A stretch of 49,437 nt of DNA, counting the filler, from Jimgerdemannia flammicorona (lineage: Eukaryota), in NCBI GenBank assembly GCA_003990765.1. It is 2 parts of 2 records of this genome, joined end to end, with 100 filler letters (N's around TTAATTAATTAA, not from the genome) between each part and the next. Parts side by side here need not be neighbours in the genome. Positions count along the whole stretch, not along the records: positions 1 to 24,671 come from RBNJ01000944.1; 1 more part is not named here. One strand, given 5' to 3'. How positions within the stretch are numbered: the stretch's first letter is position 1; the number at the start of each line of letters is the position of its first letter. Both the position numbers and the translations under genes were made by a program. Below, piece by piece: positions 114-24,771 of the stretch. The notes beneath the pieces are model-generated. The model was not told where the DNA came from and did no database searches. It saw only the letters and a program-made list of their open reading frames with translations.

Positions 114-1066
114 CTTGAAGAACTTGCTCTTTGTAATGACTTCCTTCATCACTTCGCCTTTTGATTTTTTGTGCCCTTCGGCGTCCACTTCGCTTGGGGG
201 TTCGACGAAACCGCCAAAATGGGAGCGCGAAACGGTTTCATTGTCGATCGTGCCTGTTTCAAAGTTATACGAAGGTTAAAAAAATCAAGTGCAAAAACGG
301 CAAACATTGATCTCTCTCCATTGATATTGGCAACCGCCTTCACATTCACCATTACAACAATCTCTTCACGATAACGAAGACCAAGAAATACGAAAATGGC
401 AACGCACCCTTATCATCCTCATCACTCAGCCCCAGATCTGCCTCGTCAAAATCGTCAATGTTCGCCAGCGACTGCCCATAGTGGGTCAGGTCCTCATCAT
501 CGTCCAGATTAAATAGAGTCCCTCCACGCGCCCTCTTCTGCTTCTCGCGCGTGAAGCGCTCGAGCATGCGCTCCTCGGCGGTAAGAGTGGGGTCGTTCTC
601 GCCGAACCGACGATCCACAATACCGCCAGCCTTGTTCTTACGGTTCATCTCCACGAGGAGGGTTTTTTTGCGCTGGAGGATGCGAGATTATGCGAGAGCA
701 GTCCAATTGATGTCTATGGGATGAGGGAAACAAGGCGAAGGACAGGCGGCAAATCCAAAAGCGCAGGCTCAGACTTACGTTGTCGTCGCCGACCTGCTTG
801 GTTAACGTGGGCCTACCGACGCTGCCTTTTACGCGACGCCCCAGTATGTCAAACTTTGTGTGAGTGGTCTTCATTTCGAAAGGGTTCATTTGGTGTTTGA
901 TGGCGTCGAGCTTGCGGGCCACATCGTTCCGGTTTGCGGCGTCGTTCGGCTTCCCTTTCTTGCGATCCTTTTTCGATGTGGAGGCGCGCGAACCCGGGCC
1001 GATGGCTCCAGCTGCCTTGAGCGAGGATTTTAGACGCTTCAGCGCAGATGCCTTTGAGGAGCTCAT
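114..1066 (-). CDS. NOP14: Nucleolar protein Nop14 (SSU processome), 5' part; exons 1066-779, 672-408, 253-114; continues beyond window start
   Basis: Spliced translation [13 protein letters not shown]...NPFEMK...KFDILGR...GRPTL...[47 protein letters not shown]...[16 protein letters not shown]...HFGG...[18 protein letters not shown] matches Nop14 N-terminal motifs. GT-AG introns 778-673 and 407-254 keep the frame; the third donor is at 113. Confidence 0.93.
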
Positions 1067-1235
1067 GGCGAAGAGGGGGGGGGGTGGGTGCGGGTGCGAG
1101 ATGGGTAGGAGCGAGGTGCGAGGTGGTGTGTCCAAGCCACCCATAAAAAATAATTCATGATGACGTAAACACATAACTGAAGTATGTATTTAAAATGCCA
1201 TTACAAAAGCAGTGGCCTGAGACCCTGCTACAGAC

Positions 1236-2650: not shown

Positions 2651-2652
2651 CA

Positions 2653-3700
2653 CTATTTTCCTTGCCTCTTGGCAGGCCTCCTCATTAACATCCAGCATAC
2701 CATCGCTGTTATCCCAGCCATAGCCAAGATGGCTGGTATTAGCCATAAAGATGATATTTTTCTTTCTAATTCAGTTGTTTTCCTACCTCAGATTTTAGCA
2801 TAACCTTCAGGATCACGGAGTTTTTCGGCAATATGTTCGCTTTCCATAGTGCCTGAAATTTTGTTATCAGTAGGTCGTGCTTCATTTGGTAGTCATCACT
2901 TTTGCAGTTTGTATCTAGGAAATAAACCAACTACCAGCTCAGAATTACGATAATTATTAACAAAAGCTGCAGGAGTTTTTGATTCTTCATTTTTAAGATT
3001 TCACTCTTCTCAAAGTCAAATTTTAACAGTGAAATCATGACAAGCATCTTTATCTTCCATCTTCTGCATTAACTCTTTGAGCATTTCACCAATTTCTTTT
3101 CAAGTTTCTTGGTTGATAGCATTAATATCATTAGGTAAGTGAGCCTTGGTGGAGATGTCTGTAATTCCCATATTAGCATATAACTTAGCCACTATTTCAC
3201 TCTTTTTAGCAATCACTCTATTCTGATCTGACTGGAGAGCTGTTGTAATTTATTTGGCATTTTCTTCTATATAGTAATGTCAATTATTTTTTCAATCTGT
3301 CTCAACATTGCCCCAATACTTCTTTTACTTAGGCACTACCTGCATATAAAAATGAGGAGGTTTGTTGACTCCTGACAGTTTTCCAATAGGAATTTCTAAG
3401 AAATAACCTACTGAATGATAAACCTTATCAATTTTTTTGATACTATCTTTTAAGACTGGCAATATATCTACTCATTCTTGATCAGTTAAACCCCTTAAAT
3501 CTTTTATATGATGTTTAGTAATTACTACTATATGAGCTTTAATATTAGGGTGATAATTAACTGAAAAAAAAAACAGTTCTACCCAGATCAGATAATCAGT
3601 TTTTGAGTTGGTTCTTTTGTAAAGAAAAGCAAGCTTTTACACAGATCATATATTTTTTTTTTCTGATATAGCAGTAATAATTAATTTTTAATAAGAGTAG
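2653..3700 (-). pseudogene. Intron-less tandem HIT-family (histidine triad) hydrolase with C-terminal membrane anchor; reads best with TGA=Trp
   Basis: Minus frame ...NYHPNIKAHIVVITKHHIKDLRGLTDQE(TGA)VDILPVLKDSIKKIDKVYHSVGYFLEIPIGKLSGVNKPPHFYMQVVPK... follows the HIT pattern (P..GH..VIPK.H..DL..LT..EW; G...G....H.H.H/Q..P). A second degenerate copy reads HLPNDINAINQET(TGA)KEIGEMLK...LVVGLFPRYK. The C-terminus is hydrophobic: SLWLIPAILAMAGITAMVCWML-RRPAKRQGK, TAG at 2655-2653. The frame holds 10 TGA and 2 TAA; homopolymer frameshifts occur above ~3560. Confidence 0.75.
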
Positions 3701-4505: not shown

Positions 4506-7013
4506 CTATTCGGTGGATCTTTTCTTGGCTGGCATCCCACTCACGTTCCCAAAACAACCTCCGATGACATCATCATTGTCATCTGTTCTTTTTCTCCTAC
4601 GTGCTCAAGCATTGGACAGTGCAGCATCATTGGCCTTGTCGCAGATTATTCTCAAAGTAGCCTGATATTAAACAAATACATGGTGAGAAACTGGATGCGC
4701 CTGTTTGTCAGAAGATAATCATAGGGGTATTCACCTTAATGTCAGTCATAACAGTGCAGATCTCCTCCAGACATGCAATGGTTTCAATTGCATTGGGCAT
4801 CTTGGTCCAGTTAAGTCTGCCCAGCTGGCAGACATTTGTACCCTTACAATCCATAGCATAGACATCGTACATCCAGCCTTTTGAACACAGAAAAGAGCAG
4901 CGAAATTATTAGTTACAATGAATCCTACCGATACTAACCAAAGATCACATACCCCAAGATTGGACTCCAAGAACGAACATCTGGTGCAGCTTATCATCAG
5001 GGGTATTTGGATTTGCAGAGAAAAAGGCATATAATATATCTCTCATGGAAACAGCGAGATCTATGCAATCGGTGAATATTTTTTTGCGATGGGCTTCTGG
5101 GAGACCGCCGCTCCGAAGCCCGATGATCGCTTCAACCTTGTCAATACTTGACCTCAAAGTTCCCTTGAAGTCGCGCCTCTGACCGATTTGGGCACGAAGT
5201 ACGACGGATCGCCCTTGATTCCGACGTTGGGCAGATGCCCAGCAACAAATCTCGTCCCTACAGAAAAAGCGTAAGTAAGATACAGAAGTGGATCATGTGC
5301 GTGTGAACAGTCAGGACTTACACTTCCACTTTGAGTTGTTTCCAGTCAAGCAATTTTCTCGCCAGCATATTCGGAAACAAATTATCAAATGCCGCCTCTG
5401 ACATTGGCAGGTCGACTTCTTCGAGATTGTCCGCACTATATTGATTGCCATCAGTATTATTTGATGTCTGAGAAGAAAGAGAGAGAAAAAACTTACTAGG
5501 TCAAAATAGCACGTTTGATGGGGTAAGAATCAACATCATTGATATCCTTCAATACATGTTCAATGTCCCTTGGATTACTCAGGCCACTTCGGATAGTCTA
5601 TGCAAGGATAAATCAGTTAGCTTTATTATTAGATAAAGACCCATCATTACCAGATGTCTGAAATTAAAATGATCAATTCTTCCCAACTACCTCATCAATT
5701 TTGTCAAAGAGGTGGGATACATTGTCCGATATCAGAGTCTCCGAAAGCTTGACTTCTTATCTGAAACTCTGAACCATTTCTGCCCAATCTTCTTTGGTGA
5801 ACAGCACCTTACTTGCAATGCTGTCACCTGTAAGGTCTAAGATGCCCCAGTACGCAAGACTACAGGTACAAAAAGTAATTGGCAAGGCTTCAGGATAAGC
5901 ACGTCAGAAGAATCTAAGCACTCAGAAAATTCACAAACCACTCACTCGTCACACTTCTGCCCATCCGGAAGATCCTTCACGTAGGACTTGAGCACCGAGA
6001 CGACATCTGTGCCACTGGTTAAGATGTAGGGTCTCTTTCGATCTGGTGCTTCTGTAGACTCCAGACGCTCGATGTGGGGACCTCTGACTACGTTGGCCAT
6101 GGCATCGTTCTCCAGTCTTCCACTCACTTGATTTCCATTTTCGTCCTAATAAGCGAAAGTGCAAATGGTTCATAAATAGAATTGATCCAAAGGAGGGCAA
6201 GAATTAAATAAGCAAATGGCTGAAATAACAAACCAAAAGCATCATCGCACAAAAGCTATCACAAAATTTACATGCTGGAATCATCAAGACAAATTGCAAA
6301 AATGTAACTATACCTCTATATCTTCTTGATCATCGTCACTCATGTCATCTTCGTTAATCTCATCAACATCTTCTTCACCCATGTCATCACCAGACTTGTT
6401 TTGTTATATAGCATCACTTGGCTTTCACTTAGTTATTTGAACATCCCATAGTAAAATTCAACACATCTCTGAATTTTCCATTACAAGTTCCTTAACTGTT
6501 CCAGAGTATTTGACTTTACCTGGTTTTTTGTCAATGAACTTATTTCCTCATGGAGATCCAGATTTGTTTGACAGACAGAGTGACGAATGGACAACTATTT
6601 ATATTATTATTAGTATTGAGAGTCTCAAACAGTTCAAATCTATGGCAACTGCATATACCGCTGTCTTTTCTTGCATCCATTGTTCCCAATCTTGCTGAAA
6701 CCTTGTTTCCTAGCCGGAAGAAAGCATAGGCATTAGAATTACTGTTTGGCGACATGACATAGACTTGCAAAGAAAAAAATTATTTAGTTACATACACTGA
6801 GATCCTTTTGTATTTTTTGAAGCTTTTCTGTTATAGCTTGATCCTTGCTTCGCTCCAAGGCAATTGGAGGGTACTTTGATATTTTTCAAAGGCTCGAACT
6901 CGATGTGTTGAAAAGGCGAAGCGAAAGAATTCCAGCGGAGTAGGATTGCAACTATTGGTCATCCAGCCAATGTTCCGTTTTCGCATGGTAGAGTTACTTT
7001 GAGGCTTTGGCAT
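4506..7013 (-). pseudogene. Multi-exon fungal lineage-expanded hypothetical protein with a C-terminal restriction-endonuclease-like (CRN-type) domain, inactivated
   Basis: Starts MPKPQSNST... and has several GT-AG introns. The C-terminal exons read RRDFKGTLRSSIDKVEAIIGLRSGGLPEAHRKKIFTDCIDLAVSMRDILYAFF...FVLGVQSWG, and the last exon ATLRIICDKANDAALSNA*ARRRKR...KKRSTE ends at TAG 4508-4506. Premature stops are consistent with CAA>TAA and CGA>TGA. The domain call is by resemblance only. Confidence 0.55.
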
Positions 7014-7102
7014 TATGAACTTAGCAAAAAAAAAAATAGTGAGAATTTATTGACGAACAAAACTAATAAACAATCACTATAGTGGGCTTTTAACCACTCA
7101 AG

Positions 7103-7276
7103 GCCGGCCACCCCTACACGGTGACTTGCCATTACTGGCTTCCGACAGCTTAGTCTGCCGCAGACGCCTTGTGTGATTAACAAACCCTCACAATACTTCT
7201 TAGCAATGAAATCAGCCGGCCACCCCTACACGGTGACTTGCCATTACTGGCTTCCGACAGCTTAGTCTGCCGCAGA
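7103..7276. repeat. 62-bp perfect direct repeat, two copies (7103-7164, 7215-7276)
   Basis: GCCGGCCACCCCTACACGGTGACTTGCCATTACTGGCTTCCGACAGCTTAGTCTGCCGCAGA is present twice, 112 bp apart. Confidence 0.9.
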
Positions 7277-7991
7277 TGCTTCTTCCATGCTTAACAGAAG
7301 TAGCGGTACATTTATGAGAGGAAAAATTGTTCCTACGTACCCGATCATTGGAGTGAAGAGAGCAAAGTGCGCGGGGGGCGTGGTGTTTGTCTCAAAAAAA
7401 AAAAATCCAGTTACGTCACGTCTTGTTTTGTTGCAGCACGCCCCATATAGTGTACTTTATTAAGTCACTTATATCCTGCGCCTCAGTGACATTTACGAAT
7501 GACGTCAGCCTTCAGGGGGGGTAGTGCATTGCCATTCGCTCATGCAAAAAGAAAAACAGCACGGCGTCACCCAGTATAATGATGATGTCATCACCAAAGC
7601 CACCCGCAATTTTTACGCCTCATCAAAAACAACCCGTCGCGTCTTACTATATCAAACGGACGCACACATTTGAATCTAGCCAGTCGCGGTTTGTCAGATT
7701 TCTCATGTTTTTGCTGATTCATCTGTCTCTAACATACGTTTTTTGCCTTTTGGTTCCAAGCTGACGAGTCTCGCACGCGTTTGCTCCACTTCAGCACCTT
7801 AGACTCGCGAACTCTCTTGATTAAAGTTGTTTGGTAAGTATTGCTGGAGTGCACTGTGTTCACGGCAGAGTAACCTTGTGGGAGATGATTACTTGAGTGT
7901 GAGATTGGGCAGAGACAGTCTTGGTTCGAGAGAGTCAATAGGCACCTTTAGTTTCATCTTTTGCTGACCTTTTTCGATTTTACTGAACAGA

Positions 7992-8165
7992 ATGGCGAGG
8001 ACAAAGCAAACGGCAAAGAAATCGACAGGCGGCCATGCCATGACGCAGCCTCTACAGTTACTGGAAACAAGGTCCTCCAGCCTGACCCCTGCTGGTGCCT
8101 CCGCCCATCCATCGAAATGAAGGAAGACCGGGTCCAAACCCCCACACTACCAAGGTGATGACAAG
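7992..8165 (+). pseudogene. H3-tail-mimic gene, copy 1, first coding exon (downstream exons not found)
   Basis: MARTKQTAKKSTGGHAMTQPLQLLETRSSSLTPAGASAHPSK*RKTGSKPPHYQGDDK, then phase-0 donor AAG|GTATAT at 8166. An acceptor CAG lies just before the ATG. No histone-fold sequence follows. Confidence 0.8.
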
Positions 8166-8217
8166 GTATATATTCTCTCTAGAAAAAAAGCAGGGTTTTG
8201 ATCATCAAGGTCTGCAG

Positions 8218-8573
8218 AGTCCATTTGACACTGCTACATGACTATCTCGTCATCTTTAGTCAATCTGACAAAAGACATGGTGAGATTTCGCTCATATTGT
8301 GGACAGAGTGAAACTCTAGTCAATTTGACCAGTGTTTTCATATACTTCTCCGACACAATTGTGGTATGATGATTTGGATATCAGTGCCATTTTCATTATC
8401 CATCAGTCAATTTGACAGATGGCAATTTGTAGTTTGGGTTAAGGCGAATTCCAGTCAATTTGACAGGTATTCTTAACCCTCATACCATTAAACTGCAATA
8501 CATTGTCCTCAGTCAATTTGACAGACGACATTTTTGCGGTTGAGTTTGAGTCGAACTCCAGTCAATTTGACAG
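8218..8573. repeat. Array of ~7 palindromic cores AGTCAATTTGACAG with semi-variable spacers, inside the intron of H3-tail gene copy 1
   Basis: Cores at ~8218, 8258, 8318, 8405, 8453, 8511 and 8560. GTCAA-T-TTGAC is an inverted repeat, and alternate spacers are related (~106-bp higher-order unit). Confidence 0.85.
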
Positions 8574-8699
8574 GAGTTCATATACCTCATGCACGAAGGT
8601 GTCGGGTGAGGGAAATGATCAGAGGCACCCACTAAATAATTAGTAAAGCTTACCCAACAAAATGAGAGAAAGGGGCCAAAAGATAACATGTGCGCAAAT

Positions 8700-9410
8700 T
8701 CAGTCCCTGTTTATTGTCTCTGTTACAACGAATGATTTTTTACCCTCAAACGCTATCCCAAAAAGCAATTTTTTTTTTACATCATCTGAAACCCCCACCC
8801 AATACTGTTTTTCAATGATCTGATCAAGCGCCGTTTGCGCGAGTGTATCCAGGTTGTTTTCGCGGGCAACCTTGAGCTCCATCACAACCCCAGACAGTGC
8901 GCTCCGCAACTTAGGTTCTGCACGAACATCAAACCGCCCAAGCCCAGCCTCCCGATTGGATCTAACATTGTATCCGCGACGCTGCAGGGCAACAAACAAA
9001 CCCAGACAAAATGCATGGTAGAAAACCTCCGCCTTCTTCCCAGATTCACTCCCGCCAACATTGTGGAATGACAAGCACTCCATAGTCAGACTTTCAAACT
9101 CACGCTTGAATTTCTCGACATCACCCGACACCAACGACTTGAGAAGATCTTCCACCTCTCCAGGATTGCGGAGTGCCGGAACGATCCAGTCGACCCACTG
9201 CTCCGAATTCGGTACGACAAACTGACCGTCCCGGATGGTGAGATAGCCAGCATAGTACAGAAGTGTCCACAGTGCTCGATCGTCATGGACTGCAAGGTCC
9301 CCATAGGACATGTTGTCGCTGAGTATATATTTGACAGGCTTGCGGTCGACCAGATCTGAAACGGCATCCTTGAATTTCTGGCTCGCATTCGAAAGGTGGT
9401 TTTTGATCCT
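8700..9410 (-). pseudogene. C-terminal exon of AAA-ATPase-like / PD-(D/E)xK nuclease (DUF1703/PDDEXK_9-type) protein; upstream exons missing
   Basis: Family motifs LWTLLYYAGYLT, VPNSE, EVFYHAFCLGLF, RSNREAGLGRFDV, VVMELK, ALDQIIEKQY and GIAFEGK are present. The N-terminal part of the 304-aa ORF is intron-like low-complexity sequence. Confidence 0.85.
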
Positions 9411-9517
9411 CCTTTTTTTTTTTAAAAAAAAAAAGGGAATGAATAAATAAAGAAAATAAAATGAGACCCGAGCAACAAATGCGGACAATACACTCAGAAA
9501 ATATGTATAGTGCACCA

Positions 9518-10546
9518 CACTTATACTCAACTTTTTGCTACTCCTTTTTAATGTATTTAATAATAATAATAATAATAACATAAATTGATAGAACATCCTA
9601 TAAAGTTTAATCAAATAGAGAGCTTTTTTTTTATTATTACATATAATATTTTAATAAAAATAGTTTTTTCATTATTTTATAATAGATAATGAGACCGATC
9701 ACAATTTCGGCCTTAAATTAAAGCCAAATCACAAATTACTGGTCACAATTTCAAAGCCATAGGGGCTGAAATTATAGCCAGTTACACATTTTGGCCTTAA
9801 ATCAATTACTAAAATTGCTGAATTCCCCTTCAAGCCAGTCAGTTACTTTAAAAGTAAGCCAGCAAGCTGCTCAAGCCGCTTGTGCTGCTATCACTGAGTC
9901 TTCACCAAGTTCTTCCCAGAAAGAGAACTTGGCAAAGGGGAACTCGGCCTTCATAAAGCTGCTCAACCCAGCCAGTTACACAATTTTGGCCTTAAATCAA
10001 TTACCCTTTTGCCGAATTTCCCTTCAAGCCAGCCAGTTACCTTAAATCGATTGGTAATCAATTTAAGACCAAAATTGTGTAACTGGCTAGGTTGAGTAGC
10101 GAATTCTACTAAGTCACAAATTAATAGTTGCATGTGAACTTATGCTCAATTTTTTGTCACTCCTTTTTGCTACTCCTTTTTAATATATTTAATAATAAAA
10201 AAATAAAAATCATAAATTGATAGAATATCTTATTAAGTTTAATCAAATAGAGAGCTTTTTTTATTATTACATATAATATTTTAATAAAAATGGGTTTTTT
10301 TACTATTTATAATTTAGAATATTACAATATATAAATCCCTTCTCCTCTATATTAGCTATATTAAATAAAAATATTATTAGAAATATATATAGTAAATATT
10401 ATCTATTTTAATCAAATAGAGAGTTTTTTTTATATTTTTTTCTAGTTATAATAATATATAAATTTAAATAATATAGTTATTAGTATTATAATATAGAGAT
10501 ATTGTTACTCACAAAGGCCAAAATTGTGGCCGGTCACAATTTTGGC
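9518..10546. repeat. AT-rich repetitive block: ~165-bp direct repeat (~9520-9685 / ~10140-10310), repeated CACAATTTTGGCCTTAAAT motifs, terminal 12-bp hairpin
   Basis: The duplicated sequence is directly visible. GCCAAAATTGTG-GCCGGT-CACAATTTTGGC at 10517-10546 is a perfect inverted repeat. Probably a non-autonomous TE remnant. Confidence 0.6.
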
Positions 10547-10944
10547 ACTTTTACAAAGCCAAATCGAAATAAATCTGGCTATAGACCTGACCATGAAAAT
10601 GTTAATAACTCTATTAATATACATCCAATTTGGATATACTTTAGCTTGTTGGATCCACCTTTGATATGGGAATCTAGCACAACAAAGATAAATAAATTTG
10701 GAGGTATATTTATAAAGTTATTCACATTTATGTAAAATATCTATTTCATGAGTTTGTTCTCCGGTCAGGTTGGGTTTCAAGTTGCAAGTGTGACGTCTAC
10801 ATTTTATTTCTAACTCAGCTATAAGATCGTTCATCTGTCAATACTGTCAACAATCTTTCTTGATATCTTATAAAATCAAGGTATGTTATATATATATATA
10901 TTATGCAATAAATATAGGGAAGATACCATCCAAAACATCTCCAC

Positions 10945-11172
10945 GTCCCATCTCGTCTCAATCGTCAATCGTCCGTCCCATCCCATCTCGTCTCAATCGT
11001 CAATCGTCCGTCTCGTCTCAATCGTCAATCGTCCGTCCCGTCCCATCTCGTCTCAATCGTCCGTCCCGTCCCATCTCGTCTCAATCGTCAATCGTCCGTC
11101 CCGTCCCATCTCGTCTCAATCGTCCGTCCCATCCCATCTCGTCTCGTCCGTCCCGTCCCATCTCGTCTCAAT
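10945..11172. repeat. Compound microsatellite/minisatellite of CGTCC / CATCT / CGTCT / CAATCGT units
   Basis: Directly visible tandem units ending ~11 bp before the transposase ATG. Confidence 0.9.
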
Positions 11173-11183
11173 AGTCCCACAAA

Positions 11184-12300
11184 ATGCCAAGACTAGCTAA
11201 ACAAAACCAGCACTTACAAGTTCTAAGATACCATAAATTTGAAGAAGAAATTATAGGTAAATATTATTATATAAATAATAATAATAATAATAACAATAAT
11301 AATATATTAATTATAATTATAATTATAATTATAATATAGATAATGACAATGAGAGAGAAGATGAAGATGAAGATGAAGATGAAGATGAAGATGAAGATGA
11401 TAAAGATGATGATGAAAGAGAAGAAGATGAAGATGAAGATGAAGATGAAGATGAAGATGAAGATGAAGAAGATAATGAAGACAAAGATAAAAAAGCTGAC
11501 GGTAGTTGGGAATCTCATATCATTGCACTTCAAGTTCACATGAAGAGTTTAGAGAATCTATCTCTAAATTATATTCTAAAATACACCATATATCACAATA
11601 TATGGTATTTAGAAATAATAATAGGAGTGCTTCTCAAGCTAGTCATCTGATTGCAGAAAGTATCAACAAAGGCTTATATTATGCAAAGCTTTTGAGAAGA
11701 TGGACACAAGATTGGATTGACAACAGAATTCTTCCTATTTCTCAGCAAGGAAGACATACTAAGAAAAAAAAGTCTTCTTGAAGATATAGACATTAAACTT
11801 ATAGTTAAAACTTATTTAGACTTTTTCTATATCAGCAGAGTCTATAAAAATTCATGAAGAAACAGCAAGAAGATGGATGCTAAAGATGGGCTATACTTAC
11901 AGTAGGCGCAGAAAAGGACTTTATGTTGATGGTCATGAAAGAGATGATGTTAAAGTATCTTGTGAACAATTTTTAAAGCAGATGGCTGACTGGAAACCAT
12001 TTATAGTTCAATATGATGAGAATTTTCAACCATTACAACACAGTATTCCTCTTGGACAACAACATATTCTGGTGACACATGATGAGGTTACTTTTAATGC
12101 TAATGATGATCTAAACTATGGATGGGGACCAAAAGGACAATTTCCTCTAAGAAAAAAAAAGTAGAGGTGCTAGTATAATGGTTAGTGATTTTCTTCTGGA
12201 TACTGTTGGAAGACTGGCTATATCTGAAAGACAATACAAGGATATGAAGAGTCCAAAGAAACTTGTTGTCTACTTGAAATTGGACTGGAAATGATCTAAT
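11184..12300 (+). mobile_element. Degraded IS630/Tc1-mariner-like (fungal 'DGHER' type) DDE transposase, 3'-truncated
   Basis: Exon 1 MPRLAKQ... is followed by an intron and an acidic (GAAGAT)n exon. Later segments read YAKLLRRWTQDWI...LPISQQGRH, ETARRWMLKMGYTY...KGLYVDGHERDDV, ILVTHDEVTFNANDD and RGASIMVSDFL...GRL. Frameshifts and stops are present. Confidence 0.8.
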
Positions 12301-12319
12301 AGATCAGGTATATACACAG

Positions 12320-13107
12320 GATATCGCGATCGCCACCCGCGTCTTCCGGTCAAACTACGTTTAGACGAGAAGAGAATCATCGCCTACGAACTTCCTTTGG
12401 GGGTTCATGGAATACCGTGCTTCGAAATCGGGTTTGCTGTGCGCACCTGGAGCAATCTGATGGATTCCGTGCCCGAGTTTGATATCGTTACGGGCCCGAA
12501 CACATTTTGGACTTGTGATATTGCCTTCCGACCAATCAACCGTCCTCGACCTGCACCTGGCCAAGGATGTAATTCGGCTGGAGAGGCATATCCGACCATG
12601 GTGGTAGAAGTTGACGTAAACCAGAGCCATAAAAGCTTGTACCGAGCGGCAGCACACCATTTTTCTCCACGAACCACAATTCAGATATATCTCGCTATCA
12701 AGATTTTTCCTCGCCGACAGAACGGTACACGAACAATGGTTGCTTTACGTTTCCTTCGTACAAACAAGGCCCGACATCGTAAAATCGTTTGGAACAGCAC
12801 CAATCCCCAGGCAAATGAAAGACTATCTTCAGGCTAAACACGTTCCAGATGCTGCCATTACAGGTTTAAGAAGACATGGAGATCCTGCTTGCGACGCTGC
12901 TGGTATTGCATTATACCAAATGAATTTTCCTGCAGCTCTACTTTTCAACGGTGATCCGGCTGGTGTTCCTGGTGCATTAGCTGCTGGCTTCAACTTGGAT
13001 TTATGGATTGTACAGGCTGCAGCACTGAGAGGTATGTATACATTTGAGTTGAATCAATTTTATTATTACAATATTAATTTTTATAATTTTCTTTTCTGAT
13101 AGGTTAA
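12320..13107 (+). pseudogene. Crinkler-associated restriction-endonuclease-fold (Uma2-like) domain, C-terminal exons, frameshifted
   Basis: After acceptor CAG (12319): ...IIAYELPLGVHG...CDIAFRP...YPTMVVEVDVNQSHKSL...SPRTTIQIYLAIKIFPRR...MVALRFLR. After a frameshift at ~12765: PDIVKSFGTAP...LYQMNFPAALLF...FNLDLW. The last intron is 13032-13102 and the stop is at 13105-13107. Confidence 0.7.
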
Positions 13108-13466
13108 TGCTTAGATTTCGAATCAAAATTTTCTTCGCTCAAGTCCAAAGTGCCGACATCCATTATGTTCTCACATAGTCAGAAGATCGTCTGCGCTTCC
13201 CTTTTTTTGAATTGTCATGCAAATATTGAATGTACTTAGCTCGCATCAGATTCATTTATATTTTGGGCTCATCACGGAAAAAAAAATAAGGGGGATGGCC
13301 AGAGGTTAGAACATTAGAATCCGAAGGAAGGCACAGGGCCCAGATCACTCCAACATTGAAATGAAAGAAGGAACGGGAGCCGAATGGAAAAACAAGATGC
13401 CCACCCTCGACAAACTGATTAGAGAAACGAAACGAAAGAAGGAATAGAAACTCACCGAAGACGGAG

Positions 13467-13859
13467 AAAGTTTAGAACAAAGTCTTAATCTCAGCGGATC
13501 GTAGCAACAAGGCTACTCTACTGCTTACAATACCTAGTTCTATTTAAGTCGTCTGCAAAGGATTTATCCTCTCCAATATTTGAAATTGCAATTCGGAAGC
13601 AAGGAACGCAGCCATTCCGCTACGCACCCGGTACCCCCCTAGTATGATTCAGGAGCCGAGGCTCTATTGTTATTCGACTAAACATGGAGAAGGTATGGAT
13701 CGTCGCTTCTAGCACGGATTCTGACTTAGAGGCGTTCAGCCATAATCCAGCGGATGGTAGCTTCGCGGCATTGTCTTTTCAGACAACCGCAAATACCAAT
13801 TATCCGAATGTAGGGTTCCTCTCGTACTAACTTCAATTACTATTGCAACAACTTTTCAT

Positions 13860-13900
<41 letters not shown>

Positions 13901-14033
13901 CTATTAGTGGGTGAACAATCCAACGCTTACCGAATCCTGCTTCGGTATGATAGGAAGAGCCTATCCCTGTGGTAACTTTTCTGGCACCTCTAGCCTCAAA
14001 TTTCGAGGGACTAAAGGATCGATAGGCCACACT
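13467..14033 (-). pseudogene. Dispersed 3' fragment of 25S/28S rRNA gene with two internal deletions
   Basis: Reverse complement of the LSU 3' region: sarcin-ricin loop (GTTCCTCTCGTACT at ~13815), GGATTCTGACTTAGAGGCGTTCAG, TATCCCTGTGGTAACTT and 3'-terminal CTTAATCTCAGCGGATCG. Conserved segments are missing at ~13900 and ~13961. Confidence 0.93.
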
Positions 14034-15639
14034 AAATGATGTAGCAGGGGGATTTCTGCTAGATGCCGTTGCTCGCAAAAAGTAGCCCTGCAATGAGTAC
14101 AACCCACCCTCAACAAAACTCACTGGAATTACAAGCAGCCACACACCAAATCAAATGTAGCAGACAGTAGGATGGGTCAGATAGGCTGGAGTGCAATTGG
14201 ATAGGCTGGAGTGCAATTTCTGAAGGCAGGAAGTGATTTAGTGCAATTGCAATTCCCCGAAGCTCGGTGTCTTTATATATTTTAGAGAATTTGTTTCTGT
14301 ATGGCTAGCTATGCAGTTTCTCAACATGATGGATATACGTAACTAAGGGATTATGTTTTCCGATGGGTGACTTAGACCTAACTAACTGGAGTGTTTTTAA
14401 CCTATCTGTGAATTTCATGGGAGAGGTCCACGTGGACATTCTGTTTTCCTAAAATTTGCCTGTCAGAATGGGAAGGACTATCGACAACGCAAGAGCGACG
14501 GTAAAATTGTGGCCGAGACAACTGAGCATCCCATAATATCTCATTACATCTTAGTACAACGGCGTTTACATTGGTGCATGTCAGCAGGTTGTGGGTAAAT
14601 AAAAATGCCGGCTCAGGGTGATGCATGGGCCTAAGAAGAAAAGGCCCGTACATTATATGTATTATTTCTGGATCTCTATGGACAGGTCGAATGAGTCTAC
14701 AAACTGGCCTTTGGGGATTGTGAATCGCCGAACCTGGGATTCTGTGTCAGTGCAAAAGAGCCAGTGCGGCCCGCACCACTTCAGGATGACTATGCTGGTT
14801 TGGTCATTCAAGAAAGCAATACAAGCAATAAGAACCTGTTAATTCGGGTGCACGATCAGGTGACCGTCTGGGCGCACAATTTGTGGGTGATGTCACTGGT
14901 GGCACACCAAAGCTCTCGACGCGTTTGCTCCGCTTCTCCCTATTTCCCGACTCCTGAATTCAGATGCATGTTTGAATCTAGCTTGTCAGGCTGTCCAACA
15001 AAGAATCTCGAACTAAAACAACCATTCACCTATTTCCACGCATTTGCTGGTTTACAGTAGTGTTGTACAACAGACACGTTCATTCCACCTCTATCGTGTT
15101 TTTGCCTTTCGATCTCAACAAGCATCTTCAGTAGCTCATTCCGCCCGAGTTATTTGACAGACACTCAGCACATGCATCTTCACACAATAGCTCATTCCGC
15201 CCATGTCAACAAGTACTCGGATAGACACAAATCTCGACGCACTCTTCCAAATCTCGAGCTGACATATCTCAACCTTACACATAACGCATTCCGCCCAGCA
15301 CTCGGACAAGCTCATCACCTTAGACTCGTGGTAATGTTGCTGGGGTGCAGTGTGTTCACAGCAGGGTAACCTTGTGGTGGGAGATACTTAAGTGTGAGCT
15401 TGGGCAGGAGGCAATCTCGGTTCCAATTTACGCCTCTTACTGTTTACTTCATCTGTGTCTTATATATTGCATGTTTTCTCCTAACATACATTCAGACAAT
15501 GGCCCGCACCAGGTAAACAGCAAAGAAATCCACATTCGGTCGTGCACCAACCAAAGAATTGCTTGATCCACTACCAAAAGCGACAAAGCCTACTACGTCC
15601 AACCGAATGGCTTCGAGAGCTCTGAAGGTATATTTTGCA

Positions 15640-16530
15640 TATCGGCAATAATATTTCCCTTTTTATTTATTTTATTTTATGGGTTATATATCATGTCTGG
15701 CTATCTGCCTTGATGATTTTACCTTTTATTATTTATCCTTTTCATGGGTTATATATTGTGTCTGGCTATCTGCCTCAGCAATAATGTTTCCTTTTTATTT
15801 ATTTTATTTTATGGGTTATACATCATGTCTGGCTATCTGCCTTGATGATTCTACCCTTTATTATTTATTTTTTTCATGGGTTATATTATTGTGTCTGGCT
15901 ATCTGCCTCAGCAATAATATTTCCCTTTATTTATTTTCATGGGTTATATATATTGTGTCTGGCTATCTGCTTCGGCAATAATATTTCCCTTTTTATTCCT
16001 TTTATTTTATGGGTTATATATCATGTCTGGCTATCTGCTTCGATGATTCTACCCTTTATTATTTATTTTTTCATGGGTTATATATATTGTGTCTGGCTAT
16101 CTGCCTCAATGATTCTGCCCTTTTATTATTTATTTTTCATGGGTTATATATTGTGTCTGGCTATCTGCCTCGACAATAATATTTCCCTTTTTATTCATTT
16201 TATTTTATGGGTTATATATCATGTCTGGCTATCTGCCTCGATGATTCTACCCTTTTATTATTATTTTTTCATGGATTATATATTGTGTCTGGCTATCTGC
16301 CTTGGCAATAATATTTCCCTCTTTATTTATTTTATTCTATGGGTTATATATTGTGTCTGGCTATCTGCCTCGGCAATAATATTTCCCTTTTATTTATTTA
16401 TTCTGGGTTATATATTGTGTCCGGCTATCTGCCTCGACAATAATATTTTCCTCTTTATTTATTTTATTCTATGGGTTATATATTGTGTCTGGCTATCTGC
16501 TTCGGCAATTTCATTTTCCTTTTATTACAG
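15640..16530. repeat. Intronic tandem array, 13 units of 64-68 bp, core ATGGGTTATATA(T/C)(T/A)GTGTCTGGCTATCTGCCTCG, two largely alternating subtypes
   Basis: TCTGGCTATCTGC cores at 15696, 15761, 15828, 15894, 15958, 16026, 16092, 16156, 16224, 16288, 16356, 16420 and 16488. Confidence 0.95.
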
Positions 16531-18170
16531 GTTCACTAATATATTAACCTTTTATTATTCTAATTATACAAGTTATAACTGAATCTGATATCGGAAGACT
16601 TCCAACATCCCTATGTTGTATGTGCGGCCATGGAGATCGAGTTTTTGAAACCTGCAATATTGTAGGATGCCTCAATATGATATGCATTGAGCACAACGAC
16701 AGCAACGAGAAATCACCACTCTGTGCTTCTGGAGTACCTGAAAATACATGGATATGTCCTATGCATAACGAGACTGATGTTAGTATTATAATGATCACTT
16801 TTAACCAGTTTATATTATACACATAAATATTATTCTAATTCAAATTATCTCTAATCAGGTTCAAATCAAATATGATGTTAATATCAAAGTGGACATTCAA
16901 TCATTGGCGTTTAGTGAAATGGCATGGAATGCTATCATGGGGGCTGTGAATAGTACATTTGGAGGATATTGCGTAAGTGTTTATATTTTGGATGGGAGAG
17001 GTTGTAATATAATTATTATTAATTTATTTATAAATATTAAATATCTTATCTCATTTATTATTTATTTATATAAAAGCAAGGTCAAATATCCGTCTATTCC
17101 CACATCTTTAATGGTGGCAATTCTCTTCAACAATGTATACAAGATAGCATTCCAAATGGCGATCTGATGCACACAAATGGCTAATTATAAAAACACATGT
17201 GAATGAAGTTGGAGATCTTTGGATAGTGATGGGAATCCATGGTCACTTGCCAACAGTACAGTGAGTAAACTATATAATTTATTCATATATATATATATAT
17301 CAAATTCTAGATCTAACTATTGTAATTAGTTTTTCAACGCTCTTTTTGAGCAGTCAGAATACAGCGATATCAATCTTGTTCTTCTTGTCTGTGGTACTGT
17401 AATTCAACCTAAATCCAATAACAAAGAACAGATATTGCAGGCGCACATCTCGATTATTGATATTATCAAAAGGTCAGTTTATTAACATATATCTCAATCG
17501 TTGATATCAAAGGTTATTTGTATTAAGTATTATATATTATATAATAATATCAACCATCTACAATTTAACAGAGTTACTACTGGACGAGCATTACTATTGA
17601 AGGTTATGAATTTCAGCACATCCCTCTTGTCGTATCGGTCACTGTAAGATTCAATAGCCTTATGGGACACCAGTTTGGGTTCTGGAGGGAGGACAGGGAA
17701 CATATGTGCATCGAAAGGTTCAGCCTTGCAGCAAACATCCTCGGGCACATAAACACCAGAACAAGTTTTGTATAGATATTGGAAAATATGAGGATAAAAA
17801 CTATGTTGTACGTATTTTCAGATGCAATGCACCTAGGGTAGCCATTTAGCTATTGAACTATCATTTTGCCAATAAATGTAAATTTGCCATTATTGTCTTG
17901 CTATTCTATTCTTGAGCATTATAAAATGACACTTCGAGGTGTTTGAAATACATGAATATTTCGATGACAATCTCCGGGGTAATTTGTTTATTGAATTCCG
18001 AAACCTTTACCCATATACATCTATCTCGGACGCTGCCCCTCAGATATTCACTAACACTCAAGGTGGGATTTTTCAAAATATATCTCTTAAAGCATTCCTG
18101 TTGTAATTATATGGTTTTATGAGTTTATCAAAACCGTAAAGCCGTTGTACGTGACTATAGTCGATTGGTA

Positions 18171-18285
18171 GATCTGCCTCGACGATTATACCTCCCTTTG
18201 AATTTTTGTTTTTATTTCATGAGGTTATATGTCGTGTCTGGCTATCTGCCTCGACGATTATATCTCCTTTTTATTTTTAATTTAT
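18171..18285. repeat. Two further units of the copy-2 array motif in the presumed last intron of copy 2
   Basis: ATCTGCCTCGACGATTATA...GGTTATATGTCGTGTCTGGCTATCTGCCTCGACGATTATA matches the 15640-16530 unit and is followed by acceptor TTTTGAAAG|GTG at ~18294. Confidence 0.85.
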
Positions 18286-18733
18286 TTTTGAAAGGTGACA
18301 CCTCGTTGTGGTGTTCACGGTGTTCACAGAATTTATAACGAAGATGTGGCTTGTTCAATATGTTCCACCAATTTTGATCCCACCAAAACAAAAACGCGTT
18401 CACCCCCCAGTAACACACCTATGTTGCCCTTGTCTTCGGACATTCCGAGTTGTTCACTTTATATGTTCACCCGAATCGCTTAGCAAGCTTTGCCAGTATC
18501 GTCGGACGAGCTCATTCACCTCACACGTTCACCTGAGTTGTTCTGTAAGTGTTGTCTGTGTTGTTGGAAGGGTTCATTCACCTTATAAACCGAATCGCTT
18601 TGCAAGCTCTACCAGTGTCGTCGGACGAGCTTGTTCAACTCACACTAGCTCATTTACTAGTACGTTCCCCCAGGTTGTTGAGTATCCATCACCAGTAACT
18701 GTCACAGGCTCTCTTGCCGGTACCGACTTCGGA

Positions 18734-20885
18734 ATGGCACGCACCAGACAAACCGCAAAGACGTCGACCTTTGGTCATGCAGCCTGAAAAAGCCTCAACC
18801 ATGTCCAGGAGTCCGATCACTGTACCTACCAACCCCCCTACAAGGACACCGAGGCGTTCTGCTACAGTCAAGACCTGGCCATCTAATCAGGTATATCATG
18901 GTGTGGGGTTTTGATACAGAGATAGATGAGAGGAAGCCATATGACTATTCTTGCATTTACCTGGGATTTTTGGGCGAATGTGTGCGTGATTGAAGTCATT
19001 TTCACCACATTATTATTTTTTTTGGTTGGCGAATGTCTCTATGACTGAAGCCATTTTCACCACATTATTTATTTTGGGTTGGCGAACGTCTCTGTGACTG
19101 AAGCCTTGGTGAATGTCTCGTGACTGAAGCCTCCAGACCTTCCTTTCTATCGTACCACATTATTATTTATTTCGGTTGGTGAACGTCTCTGTGACTGAAG
19201 CCATTTCATTTATTTCGGTTGACGAACGTCTCGTGACTGAAGCCATTTCATTTATTTCGGTTGACGAACGTCTCTGTGACTGAGCCTTAAGACCTTCCTT
19301 TTATCATATGAATGGCGAACGTCTCTGTAACTGAAGCCATTTTCACCACATATTATTATTTTGGGTTGGCGAACGTCTCTGTGACTGAAGCCTTAAGACC
19401 TTCCTTTTTATTATTTATTTTGGGTCGGTGAACGTCTCTGTGACTGAAACCTTACGACCTTTCTTTTTACTATTATTTATTTTGGGTCGATGAACGTCTC
19501 TGTGACTGAAACCATACGACCTTCCTTTTTATTATTATTTATTTGGGTTGGCGAACGTCTCTGTGACTGAAGCCTTGAAAGACCTTTCTTTTTATTATTA
19601 TTTATTTGGGGTCGGTGAACGTCTCTGTGACTGAAGCCTTAAGACCTTTCGTTTATTATTTATTTGGGGTCGGTGAACGTCTCTGTGACTGAAGCCTTAA
19701 GACCTTTCGTTTATTATTTATTTTGGGTCAGTGAATGTCTCTGTGACTGAAACCATACGACCTTCCTTTTTATTATTATTTATTTGGGTTGGCGAACGTC
19801 TCTGTGACAGAAGCCCCTTTTTATTATTTATTTTGGGTCGGTGAACGTCTCTGTGACTGAAACCTTACGACCTTCCTTTTTATTATTATTTATTTTGGGT
19901 CGGTGAATGTCTCTGTGACTGAAACCATATGACCTTCCTTTTTATTTATTTGGATTGGCGAACGTCTCTGTGACTGAAGCCTTGAGACCTTTCTTTTTAT
20001 TGTTATTATTTTGGGTCGGTGAACGTCTCTGTGACTGAAGCCTTAAGACCTTTCTTTTTATTATTATTTATTTTGGGTCGGTGAACGTCTCTGTGACTGA
20101 AACCTTACGACCTTCTCTCTGTGACTGAAGCCATTTCACTACATTATTATTTATTTGGGTTGGCGAACGTCTCTGTAACTGAAGCCTTAAGACCTTCCTT
20201 TATCATATGATAATCACAATTTTCTAACATGATGTTTCCAATTTATTTTATTTTTAAAAACAAATCAAATATCAGGTTTCTCGAACCATCGACATTGGGT
20301 GCGTTCAGGGCACCATGTACTGTCTGTGTGGGACTGGAGGCTGTGTTCTCGAAGGGTGCAGCATCAACTACTGTTCCAATGCCATTTGTGTTGAGAATGA
20401 TCGGAATCATCCATGCGCACCTTCTATCGCTGAAGGAGCATGGCGATGTCCAACTCATGATGGCAGAACATCGGTATGATGGAACTCGTCGAATCGATAT
20501 TCAGACTATTGAGCTTGAATCTTTTTCAGAATGGGGGATACTCCTCTCAGCAACCAGATTGATGTTTGCTTCATATGTGTATGTATTCAGATGAGTGTTA
20601 TGTATTTATTCTTGGTGCTAATATTGATTAGATTTAGCTAACATGCTATTTCTATCTATATAGCATGATCAGATCTTGTTTACAAACCACTCTTTCTCTA
20701 ATGGAGATATGCTTGAAACTGTATTGACCGGATGTGAGTTTTACTCGGTTTATTTCATTTTGGGTTTTGGGTATTATGCTCTAACCAAAGCTCTGTTTTT
20801 TAAATTACATCATGTGGCTGAGCTATCTGTGAAACCTTCTCATTGGTCCTCAGATGGCATTCCTGGCCAATGGCTATATTCATGA
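18734..20885 (+). pseudogene. H3-tail-mimic gene, copy 3: H3 tail exon, array-containing intron, PHD/ADD-like finger exon and downstream exons homologous to copy 2
   Basis: Exon 1 (18734-18890) reads MARTRQTAKTSTFGHAA*KSL.../...TRTPRRSATVKTWPSNQ|GTATAT with one frameshift. The intron runs 18891-20275. Exon 2 reads VSRTIDIGCVQGTMYCLCGTGGCVLEGCSINYCSNAICVENDRNHPCAPSIAEGAWRCPTH. RYDGTRRIDIQTIELESFSEWGILLSATRLMFASY and HDQILFTNHSFSNGDML align with copy 2. Confidence 0.75.
18975..20200. repeat. Intronic tandem array, about 22 units of mostly ~55-62 bp, core GG(C/T)GAACGTCTCTGTGACTGAA(G/A)CC
   Basis: Directly visible conserved core separated by T/A-rich linkers of variable length. Confidence 0.95.
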
Positions 20886-21225
20886 GGTGTTAGTAAATAT
20901 GATTATTCATGGCCAATAGCAAATACAGATCTACAATTCATATTACATATGTACAACATTGATCGAACTCTGTTACAATATATTCGCTGCTTATTTTTCC
21001 ATTTGCAAATAGCATTCATTTCTAATATAACTACAATATGAACAAGCCAACCTTGAAGAGCCATTGTCGACTCACCCCCCTATACAGAACAAGCGAACCA
21101 AGTGCACTGAAGGGCCATCAACATCAAATCCAAAGAGGCGAAACAAGCGTCGTGATAAATCTAACAATAGTCCATTGATTGGAAAAACGCCTGTCAGACA
21201 CCACTGGCACCTAATGTGGTATATA

Positions 21226-21955
21226 ATTGGGCACACAGTCATGTGACCAATTTGTGTGAAGTAATCTGTCTGGCATAATATATATAGATATCATTTTTAC
21301 CTGATGCAATATAGCTCTGTAATTATATAGAGAGATGTCTAGAATACAAAGATACAGAGCCAGAATTTGTGATTGCTACTTGGCAGTAAAGATATTAGCT
21401 ATTAAAAAGGACTTTCAACAAAGCTAAATTATAAATACAATAAGCAGCAATTTGAGCTAGTTAAAAATTATCAGCGAAATTAAAGTGGTCTGTCTATATA
21501 GATATCATTTATACTTGGTGCAATATAGCTCTATATTTATGTAGAGAGATATTTGAATACAAAGGTATAGAGCCAGAATGTGTTCATTAGCAGATAGTAT
21601 TTTATACTAACCAAATTTCAGAAATCTAGAGATTGTATTTTAAGAACATATAGAGAAATTAAAACTAGATGTAATACATATGTATGGAAGTGAAATTAAT
21701 ATGCTCTGACCAACATTACTCCTTCAGATGTTATATATTTAGCAAAATATAGCTCTGTAACTATGTAGAGAAATACCTAATGTACAATATTACAGAGCTC
21801 AAATATATAATTATTGACAGATTACAGAGAAATTAATTATTGAAAAGACATTTTATAAAATAAAATTTCAAGATATAATGAGCTGATCAGAGAGTATTTT
21901 ACACTTCAATTTTGCTGCCTTTTGCGAAAATTAGTCACATGACCATATGCCCAAT
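21226..21955. mobile_element. MITE-like element with 28-bp imperfect TIRs and internal ~120-bp direct repeats (a fourth unit lies outside at ~22090-22215)
   Basis: ATTGGGCACACAGTCATGTGACCAATTT (21226-21253) versus the reverse complement of 21928-21955, ATTGGGCATATGGTCATGTGACTAATTT: 4 transitions. The unit AATATAGCTCTGTAA..ATGTAGAGAGAT...ACAGAGC recurs. Confidence 0.6.
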
Positions 21956-22709
21956 GCACCCAAATATAATTTGTCGAGACCTGTAGTGGAGTATGAGTTT
22001 TGTATACCAGGTTGTGTTTATATATGTGCTGTATATATTAGTTAGGTCATGCCATCTGACAAATACCGTTACTAAATTTAATGGAAGCGAAATTAAAGTG
22101 ATCTGGCTAGCATTATTCTTTCAGATGTCGTATACAACTGGTAAAATATAGCTCTGTAACTATGTGACGAGATACCTGGTGCACAATGTTACAGAGCTCA
22201 AATTCATGATTGCTGCCGGACTGCATTAACTGTGTTTAGATCGTGTCAACCTTGGGGTGTAAAAGAGAACGAGGCATAATTTTGCTATTAGCTAATACAA
22301 TATATCCATTCAGAGTTAGCGATCGTGCACCCGTGCGCCCTATTTTGTCGTGCACTATTAGTCTCCAGTTCGCCGAGTCTAATCCAAATGAGATGCATGC
22401 GCCCAATAAGTCCACGTGATCGTGCGCCCTTTGCGCACCCAAAACATACACCACAACCACTATGGCCCCTAATAATAATACGCCACAACCGGGTCTCACC
22501 TTTTTAACATTTGAAGAGGCCCGCGAAGATTAATTGTTGAAAAGACATTGACAGATAATATTTTACACTAACCAAATTTCATATCACTTATTGCAGCCAA
22601 ATTTGGCTGCGAAAATTGTAGAACTTTGAGGTTCTCCAAAGACAATAATAATAGGCAATTTACTCGAGTATATCCCTCAGCCACTTTATTTTTCATATTG
22701 AATGAACGG

Positions 22710-24671: not shown

Positions 24672-24771
24672 NNNNNNNNNNNNNNNNNNNNNNNNNNNNN
24701 NNNNNNNNNNNNNNNTTAATTAATTAANNNNNNNNNNNNNNNNNNNNNNNNNNNNNNNNNNNNNNNNNNNN
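24672..24771. other. Artificial 100-nt scaffolding spacer (44 N + TTAATTAATTAA six-frame stop + 44 N)
   Basis: Symmetric N runs around a palindromic linker with stops in all frames. Confidence 0.97.

Follow-up and report, generated by a model that had tools for sequence, protein, structure and literature searches.

Tandem arrays with conserved cores accompany three disabled copies of an H3-tail gene family in Jimgerdemannia flammicorona

Introduction

We analysed a stretch of 49,437 nucleotides (nt; hereafter the window) from the fungus Jimgerdemannia flammicorona (assembly GCA_003990765.1), of which positions 1 to 24,671 come from record RBNJ01000944.1. The window holds three copies of a gene whose first coding exon encodes a peptide similar to the N-terminal tail of histone H3. 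In each copy this exon is followed by a tandem array, and each array is built around a short core of its own that is better conserved than the linkers between the cores. A first-pass annotation had placed these arrays in the same intron of all three paralogues and had read them as a product of selection. Here we describe the arrays and the genes that carry them. With a probability of roughly 0.4, we propose that each array is a homotypic cluster in which a short constrained core would dock a sequence-specific factor near the promoter, that the arrays are renewed by unequal crossing-over, and that at least arrays 2 and 3 come from one ancestor.

Results

Gene copies

All three copies lie on the plus strand. 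In copy 1 the H3-tail exon (7992..8165, 58 codons) starts with MARTKQTAKKSTGG, carries an in-frame TGA at codon 43 and ends at a donor at 8166 (GACAAG/gtatat, the slash marking the exon boundary). The exon of copy 2 (15499..15627, 43 codons) starts with MARTR-stop-TAKKSTFG, the stop being an in-frame TAA at codon 6, and its donor lies at 15628 (CTGAAG/gtatat). That of copy 3 (18734..18890) starts with MARTRQTAKTSTFG; a frameshift leads to a stop after 17 codons, the +1 frame is open up to the donor, and the donor itself lies at 18891 (AATCAG/gtatat). The AG/gtatat donor is common to all three exons, and the arrays begin 14-82 nt beyond it. A six-frame scan of the window found no further H3-tail exon.

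Beyond the arrays, copies 2 and 3 continue into a zinc-knuckle exon. In copy 2 this exon (16572..16790; CxCG...C-x4-C...C...C...W-x-C-x2-H) has lost its acceptor, which reads tacaaGTT where copy 3 has tatcag/GTT (caa for cag), and two AG sites close to the lost acceptor each open into stop codons. The rest of the body of about 290 amino acids (aa) was located at 16860..17834, with approximate limits, by tblastn of the family proteins P0002-P0006; 16871-16978 corresponds to the segment after the zinc knuckle and 17646-17834 to the C-terminus of P0004 (292 aa) and P0005. In copy 3 the zinc-knuckle exon (20276..20473) begins at the acceptor tatcag/, and the next conserved segment (20475-20576) is in another frame, which indicates a second, putative frameshift between the two. 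No zinc-knuckle exon was found downstream in copy 1, where tblastn with six family proteins returned copies 2 and 3 only, and a minus-strand open reading frame (ORF) of the PDDEXK_9 type (8700-9650) starts 130 nt past array 1. Copy 1 is a 5' fragment without a downstream exon, and its "intron" is therefore a presumed one. The claim that the three arrays occupy the same intron thus holds for copies 2 and 3, which have the donor, the acceptor and a homologous zinc-knuckle exon, but not in full for copy 1, where the downstream exon is missing. Through stops, frameshifts, the lost acceptor and truncation, all three copies are disabled in this assembly, although assembly errors are possible.

Tandem arrays

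Motif counts in the window were compared with expectation and with shuffled sequence, and tandem structure was determined with Tandem Repeats Finder (TRF). Array 1 (8218..8571, plus strand) consists of seven dyad-symmetric 12-mers, AGTCAATTTGAC, five exact and two with one mismatch. When at most one mismatch is allowed, the whole window contains seven such sites, every one of them within 8218-8571, where 0.54 would be expected; none of 100 shuffles attained seven. The cores lie 40-87 nt apart at irregular spacing and are based on a decayed two-core unit of about 107 nt. This unit is all that TRF recovered (107 nt x1.8 at 8394-8590), and three older cores lie besides.

Array 2 (15642..16526, plus strand) is made of 13 units of 64-68 nt around GTCTGGCTATCTGC, in two alternating subtypes that form a 132-nt higher-order unit. 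It fills 94% of an intron of 944 nt. TRF reported a period of 64 nt x13.4 over 15642-16526, with further periods of 132, 198 and 330. Allowing two mismatches, GTCTGGCTATCTGC occurs 15 times in the window (0.25 expected): 13 times at 15695-16500, once at 18236 and once as a weak match at 1430. The site at 18236 is the core within two stray units of the array-2 type (18172..18290, plus strand), which lie in the stretch that separates gene 2 from gene 3, are 78% identical to the reference unit and retain CpGs that array 2 has lost. The array-2 motif therefore reaches beyond the intron, yet stays within the same gene cluster.

Array 3 (18973..20200, plus strand) has 19-20 units of about 49-64 nt, a few of them irregular, around GTCTCTGTGACTGAA, together with a 178-nt higher-order unit, and it occupies 89% of an intron of 1385 nt. 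Sites matching GAACGTCTCTGTGACTGAA with at most three mismatches number 19, against an expectation of 0.00, and are confined to 19031-20183; a shorter anchor brings the core count to 20. TRF found 18973-19283 (in shorter blocks) and 19351-20114, with a period of 62 nt x12.9 and also one of 178. At the periods found in arrays 2 and 3, match levels were 79-85%. The higher-order periods of array 2 (132, 198, 330) and array 3 (178) argue for unequal exchange within both.

With 7, 13 and 19-20 cores, the three arrays are real and far above chance, as the first-pass annotation had it. Outside the three loci, only three to four arrays of comparable TRF score occur in about 47 kb. The arrays fit the description of a minisatellite or higher-order tandem repeat, being head-to-tail and homogenised within each array, and array 1 does so only in part. 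Arrays 2 and 3 are regular and have higher-order periods in TRF, but array 1 gives only the 107-nt unit x1.8; likewise, the similar period that had been claimed for all three is found in arrays 2 and 3 but not in array 1, which is an irregular cluster on a decayed dimer.

Two other identities for the arrays were considered and rejected. A 265-aa ORF rich in Phe, Leu and Ile crosses array 2, but it is a by-product of the repeat, being open because the 132-nt period equals 44 codons; on the plus strand of array 3 no ORF of at least 70 aa crosses the array. As to RNAs of known families, an Rfam search of 7000-22000 returned only fragments of large-subunit (LSU) ribosomal RNA (rRNA) and one sub-threshold match resembling a small nucleolar RNA, outside the arrays.

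Core and linker conservation

The clearest difference between core and linker was seen in array 1. Here, the 12-mer is retained in 82 of 84 cells, whereas 19 of the 21 linker pairs are no better aligned than shuffles, and linkers of the same type share 44-68% identity when every aligned column is counted. No difference separates the four cores of the two youngest dimers, and their linkers are 48-68% identical. Within a dimer, the identical 12-mer stands at both cores between flanking linkers that are unrelated. Array 1 thus gives the cleanest core-over-linker signal, one that would hardly arise unless the core were constrained or some process favoured core-bearing units.

For arrays 2 and 3, any gap within the T-rich part was scored as a departure. 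The longest run of columns with at most one departing unit is 15 in each array, compared with 6.6 (array 2) and 4.4 (array 3) expected, and such runs were attained in 11 and 1 of 5000 permutations, respectively. The earlier description of conserved cores separated by more variable linkers is borne out by these runs and by the retention of the 12-mer in array 1.

Relationship between the arrays

The cores of the three arrays are not detectably related by sequence comparison. In ungapped comparisons on both strands, the scores observed for the three pairs were attained by 395, 49 and 638 of 2000 shuffles; when the core sides of arrays 2 and 3 were anchored and compared without their common GGGTT, 1071 of 2000 attained the score. 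This agrees with the first-pass description of unrelated cores, which are no more alike than shuffled sequence. A GTC-N5-GAC dyad common to all three cores was also considered; it is not above chance.

The linkers gave a different picture for arrays 2 and 3. A T-rich...GGGTT linker is common to their consensus units over 31 alignment columns, with a score attained by 9 of 1000 dinucleotide shuffles, and their periods are alike (64-68 nt in array 2, about 61 in array 3). The sequence TTATTTATTTTGGGT, with at most two mismatches, occurs 16 times in the window: 14 times in array 3, once in array 2 and once elsewhere. Complete motif turnover between the paralogues was therefore too strong a claim. 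These data suggest that arrays 2 and 3 may share a common descent; given the shared period and linker and the stray array-2 units, descent with turnover would be simpler than three independent births. Between array 1 and arrays 2 and 3 nothing in common was detectable, the scores being attained by 542 and 663 of 1000 shuffles.

CpG content

The ratio of observed to expected CpG was used as a proxy for methylation. It is 1.00 on the Nop14 side of the window (1-2700) and 0.99 in the PDDEXK ORF, and falls to 0.19 in a long terminal repeat (LTR) element (31500-38100) and 0.16 in the repeats at 40-49 kb (40000-49437). The low ratios of the retrotransposon and the duplicated repeat strongly mark CpG-directed mutation that is limited to repeats and presumably runs by way of cytosine methylation; a CpG-directed process would thus seem to strike repeats in this genome. 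The arrays themselves are not uniform: the ratio is 0.53 in array 1, 0.44 in array 2 and 1.05 in array 3, and it is 1.59 in the stray array-2 units. Array 2 partly shares the CpG loss of repeats and array 3 does not, a pattern that is compatible with several readings and decides none.

Host gene family

The peptide of copy 1 aligns with histone H3 chains over residues 1-39 (expectation value, E, about 1e-3), and 14 of its first 15 residues are identical. After its stop, the exon of copy 2 gives a weak alignment to H3 residues 6-34 (E 0.2-1). Over their first 16 codons, any two copies show 6-7 synonymous codon differences and 3-4 that alter the residue, and this synonymous excess is the pattern of a peptide that was once under purifying selection. 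No histone fold follows the H3-like tail; the exon ends at 43-58 codons, the zinc knuckle comes next, and no Pfam Histone match was found. Non-histone proteins with such a peptide have a precedent, since a study of SetDB1 automethylation reportedly describes a histone-mimic motif in a chromatin protein. The likeness lies in an H3-tail-like peptide within a non-histone protein. In contrast to mimics of the SetDB1 type, the mimic here is the extreme N-terminus, comprises about 15-30 residues and has its own exon, and it bears on the arrays only indirectly.

The zinc-knuckle exons of copies 2 and 3 share 34.5% identity across 84 residues (E 1e-10). Six relatives of the module exist among 1.84 billion representative proteins (best E 5e-10), and an alignment of the zinc knuckle has ten invariant columns, namely six Cys together with E, N, W and H. 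An exhaustive protein search gave seven matches, which are the six family members and P0007, an unrelated repeat protein; a family profile search returned just three proteins, all of them members already known, and a word-based protein search with the copy 3 exon returned no relatives. The only named relative is P0005, from Endogone sp. FLAS-F59071, which bears a Rad52_Rad22 domain at residues 338-465. The predicted models of P0005 and P0006 begin without the H3 tail.

Searches of Pfam and the PDB returned neither a domain nor a sequence match for the family, and they recognised no DNA-binding domain in the encoded protein. The predicted model of P0004 is poor (mean predicted local distance difference test score, pLDDT, of 55, with the zinc knuckle unresolved). 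A Foldseek search with this poor model placed paracaspase, caspases and SAVED-CHAT on top, with E from 1.6e-4 to 6e-3 and template modelling (TM) scores of 0.29-0.43, and a protein atlas offered DUF6642 and CHAT as leads for the body, both scoring below 0.9. A caspase- or CHAT-like body is a lead only, drawn from modelling. In our reading, the product is an H3-tail mimic followed by a zinc knuckle and an alpha/beta body of about 230 aa, and it belongs to a small, tandemly duplicated gene family of the Endogonales that is itself unusual.

Two sequencing runs were found to contain 0.30 and 0.23 of the words sampled, and no RNA run was among those listed. A metagenome scan with P0002 yielded no relative among 258 pattern matches. 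A scan with alignment A2 gave 116 pattern matches and a single locus (L001), which was rejected as a 15-residue chance match on a high-GC bacterial contig with no tandem repeat. A literature search found no paper that deals with the family, with mimics of the H3 tail in fungal repeats or with intronic arrays specific to single paralogues in Endogonales.

Other features of the window

Upstream of the H3-tail exon, copies 1 and 2 share a conserved block. In copy 1 it covers 97 nt (7832..7927, plus strand) just after a GTAAGT-like site 5' of the exon, and in copy 2 it was located at 15329..15423 (plus strand) by blastn and by alignment with copy 1. The two blocks are 82% identical, compared with 73% (35/48) for the first 48 nt of the coding exon in the same copies, and they are the sole between-copy blastn match outside the arrays. 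The block probably sits in an intron of the 5' untranslated region (5'UTR) of copies 1 and 2 and may be a conserved 5'UTR-intron element; it has no Rfam match.

Repeats were also found before the H3-tail exon. A 62-nt unit repeated x3.0 lies upstream of the copy 3 ATG (18465-18645, TRF score 152), and three spaced GC(TC)ATTCCGCCC motifs lie upstream of copy 2 (15120-15300), so the family has repeats on both sides of this exon. Downstream of copy 3, at 21281-22225, a unit of 56-95 nt with ATATAGCTCTGTAA...ACAGAGC recurs 3-4 times at a spacing of 214-438 nt and represents a dispersed local repeat.

At its left edge the window encodes part of Nop14, with 98% identity to the Jimgerdemannia flammicorona protein; together with the named relative from Endogone, this places the window in an Endogonales fungus (Mucoromycotina). 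An inverted repeat of 48 nt at 9958-10100, with arms that are 90% complementary and 47 nt apart, lies near the PDDEXK_9 ORF and resembles a miniature inverted-repeat element. Further along are a C-rich minisatellite (10944-11178, 63-nt unit x3.3, score 348) and a GAAGAT microsatellite (11357-11481, x20.8) that reads as an Asp/Glu-rich ORF; fragments resembling a DDE_3 transposase (11506-12164) adjoin both. On the minus strand at 13467-14026, the 3' end of eukaryotic LSU rRNA is present in three adjacent pieces (238, 88 and 31 bits; model positions 2764-3399 of 3401), which form a stray rDNA fragment that stands alone between a Uma2-like ORF region and copy 2. To the right, two runs of 44 N (24672-24715 and 24728-24771) precede a 158-nt segment of which further copies lie at 39921 and 47346, an LTR retrotransposon has 95%-identical ends at 31.5 and 37.8 kb, and a 7.4-kb tandem duplication occupies 39-49 kb.

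Discussion

The locus is an intronic tandem array with a conserved core, a type of feature that is already known. Under the reading that we tentatively favour, the host gene family carries the arrays, as non-coding tandem repeats, in its first coding intron. A constrained core of 12-20 nt, dyad-symmetric in copy 1, would be repeated to form a docking platform for a putative sequence-specific factor, and the docked factor would act in cis on the promoter a few hundred bases upstream. Unequal crossing-over or slippage would build and rebuild the arrays into higher-order units, and a new core variant could sweep through the array of a single paralogue. Arrays 2 and 3, and probably array 1, would stem from one ancestral intronic array rather than from three births. 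The arrays and where they lie, the better conservation of cores than of linkers, the higher-order structure and the disabled genes are observed directly; common descent, constraint on the core and binding of a factor are the parts of this account that we infer.

A neutral explanation is nearly as likely. It holds that one ancestral intronic minisatellite was inherited by all paralogues and was remodelled by slippage and unequal exchange (concerted evolution, molecular drive) without a function for the organism. The cores would then owe their conservation to the lower mutability of sequence that is free of CpG and of T-runs, to a small number of mutational events and perhaps to preferential re-amplification of units with a slippage-prone core. 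The higher-order structure of the arrays and the linker and period common to arrays 2 and 3 fit this explanation, as does a window rich in repeats and pseudogenes (the LTR element, the 7.4-kb duplication and the rRNA fragment).

A number of further observations weigh against a binding cluster, and several of them favour the neutral explanation directly. All gene copies are dead, and any cis function must therefore be a past one or one that does not depend on the protein. A review (PMC10386755) gives the genomes of Jimgerdemannia a size of about 240 Mb and more than 77% repeats, a description that the window fits, so arrays should be common in the closest named genome. Anchoring on the core, as was done for the units of arrays 2 and 3, favours the core-over-linker result, and the cells overcount mutational events because a few subtype-defining changes have been multiplied by higher-order duplication. 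Part of the contrast between core and linker may reflect mutation rate, since mutation is faster in T-runs and at CpGs than in ordinary sequence. The CpG-site columns of array 3 have 3.2 departures per column compared with 1.17 elsewhere, and so are about 2.7 times more variable. In array 2, variation next to the core is nearly all of the CpG to TpG or CpA kind: at three sites that are CpG in the stray unit, TG or CA stands in 13, 6 and 13 of 13 units (site 1, TG 9 and CA 4; site 2, CG 7, TG 3 and CA 3; site 3, TG 5 and CA 8). CpG decay was considered as an explanation of all linker variation and holds only partly. The evidence for common descent also has its weaknesses: whole-unit cyclic alignment of arrays 2 and 3 was weaker (28 of 500 shuffles), sensitive self-blastn gave no match between the two arrays, their shared linker is of low complexity, and the linker tests are lenient because shuffling breaks T-runs.

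What speaks against neutrality is array 1, where four cores without a difference in the youngest dimers stand against linkers that are 48-68% identical, and where the same 12-mer occurs twice per dimer between unrelated linkers. The 15-column invariant runs of arrays 2 and 3, rarely attained by permutation, point the same way. In addition, an array has been held at one intron position although the zinc-knuckle exons have diverged to 34.5% identity, which would seem long for a neutral repeat. Ordinary intronic minisatellites and higher-order tandem repeats evolve by unequal crossing-over (concerted evolution). Our arrays resemble them in their head-to-tail units of 60-68 nt, their higher-order periods, a greater identity within than between arrays and their non-coding nature. 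They differ in that the position is kept in three deeply diverged paralogues and that cores of 12-15 nt are conserved beyond the linkers.

These comparisons bear on the earlier proposal that position and period reflect selection for having an array rather than chance, which is plausible but unproven. Three chance arrays are indeed unlikely and the cores are non-random, but inheritance with concerted evolution was overlooked; if one array was inherited and then homogenised, no selection for having an array is needed. The period and linker common to arrays 2 and 3, together with the higher-order structure, weakly favour inheritance and concerted evolution.

The same annotation drew an analogy with the VANDAL transposons of Arabidopsis and their VANC proteins, and the analogy is accurate as far as the sections of Hosaka et al. 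(2017; PMC5735166) on these motifs describe the system. According to these sections, the VANC21 motifs form fast-changing tandem repeats in introns of VANC21 and VANB21 and upstream of VANA21. The likeness to VANDAL21 lies in several points: short motifs have built up into tandem repeats in non-coding sequence of the locus, with the gene's own intron among the places, related copies have sharply different arrays, which gain and lose repeats, and the units within an array diverge together. Unlike VANDAL21, the present locus has no transposon frame, that is, neither inverted ends nor a transposase adjoining the genes. It also has no recognised protein family, lies in a fungal host and consists of dead copies.

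By this analogy, the protein of each paralogue, with its H3-tail mimic and zinc knuckle, would bind its own array, alter chromatin there (by anti-silencing or silencing) and co-evolve with the core. We consider this improbable. It would account for arrays in the gene's own intron, for the recurrence of array-2 units in the flank of gene 2 and for cores that differ among paralogues, and the layout matches the VANC21 signal in introns and in intergenic and terminal non-coding regions, as given in the same sections of PMC5735166. The H3-tail mimic and Cys-rich module of the protein would suit such a role, and array 3, at a CpG ratio of 1.05, has escaped the depletion of the transposons in the window (0.16-0.19). 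Set against this, arrays 1 and 2 are depleted (0.53 and 0.44), array and zinc knuckle occur together in only two copies, and the predicted models of P0005 and P0006 start without the H3 tail. Nothing ties the cores to the encoded protein in the way that the annotation had proposed; the protein has no recognised DNA-binding domain, and its body offers only leads, weakly resembling a caspase or CHAT fold. Terminal inverted repeats and an adjacent transposase are lacking as well: no inverted repeats flank the genes, and a scan of 32 neighbouring ORFs found no transposase domain and matched only Nop14. The only transposase-like trace is a weak DDE_3 match 3.3 kb upstream (E 0.091). It is correspondingly doubtful that the family is a fungal counterpart of VANC, in which an H3-tail decoy with a zinc knuckle would recognise a paralogue-specific core in its own intron and flank, would recruit or divert histone-tail-modifying enzymes at its own locus and would co-evolve with the array through turnover of the repeats.

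Another comparison can be made with DNA transposons of the En/Spm and Ac types, which carry subterminal clusters of motifs bound by the transposase. Array 1, with a 12-nt motif at irregular spacing over about 350 nt, resembles such a cluster. In contrast to these elements, array 1 lacks an element end, an inverted partner cluster and a transposase, and its motif is found nowhere else in the window. The arrays were rejected as transposon ends, since no inverted repeats flank the genes.

A role as trigger or target of silencing is less probable still. The arrays would yield small RNAs or attract repeat-directed cytosine methylation and thereby shut off the duplicated family. Array 2 shows CpG decay on both strands when compared with the stray units (its ratio being 0.44), and the transposons in the window are strongly depleted; however, array 3 is not, and silencing leaves the conserved cores unexplained. 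Least likely of all are independent births in a T-rich, slippage-prone intron after the H3-tail exon, which would suit the unrelated cores and the fact that array 1 shares nothing detectable with arrays 2 and 3, but not the linker and period that those two have in common, nor three hits in three introns of about 1 kb when so few comparable arrays exist elsewhere in the window.

What the arrays mean depends on which of the two leading explanations is right. If they are neutral, they are a clear case of an intronic minisatellite that holds its position while its unit is replaced, and they caution that CpG decay and T-run slippage can yield a pattern of conserved cores and variable linkers. If the cores are binding sites, as we tentatively favour, an early-diverging fungus would show how, through the turnover of tandem repeats, each paralogue can acquire a cis-code of its own while the intron position stays fixed, a principle so far documented for the VANDAL transposons of plants. 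The presence of an H3-tail mimic in the host gene makes a link between arrays and chromatin directly testable.

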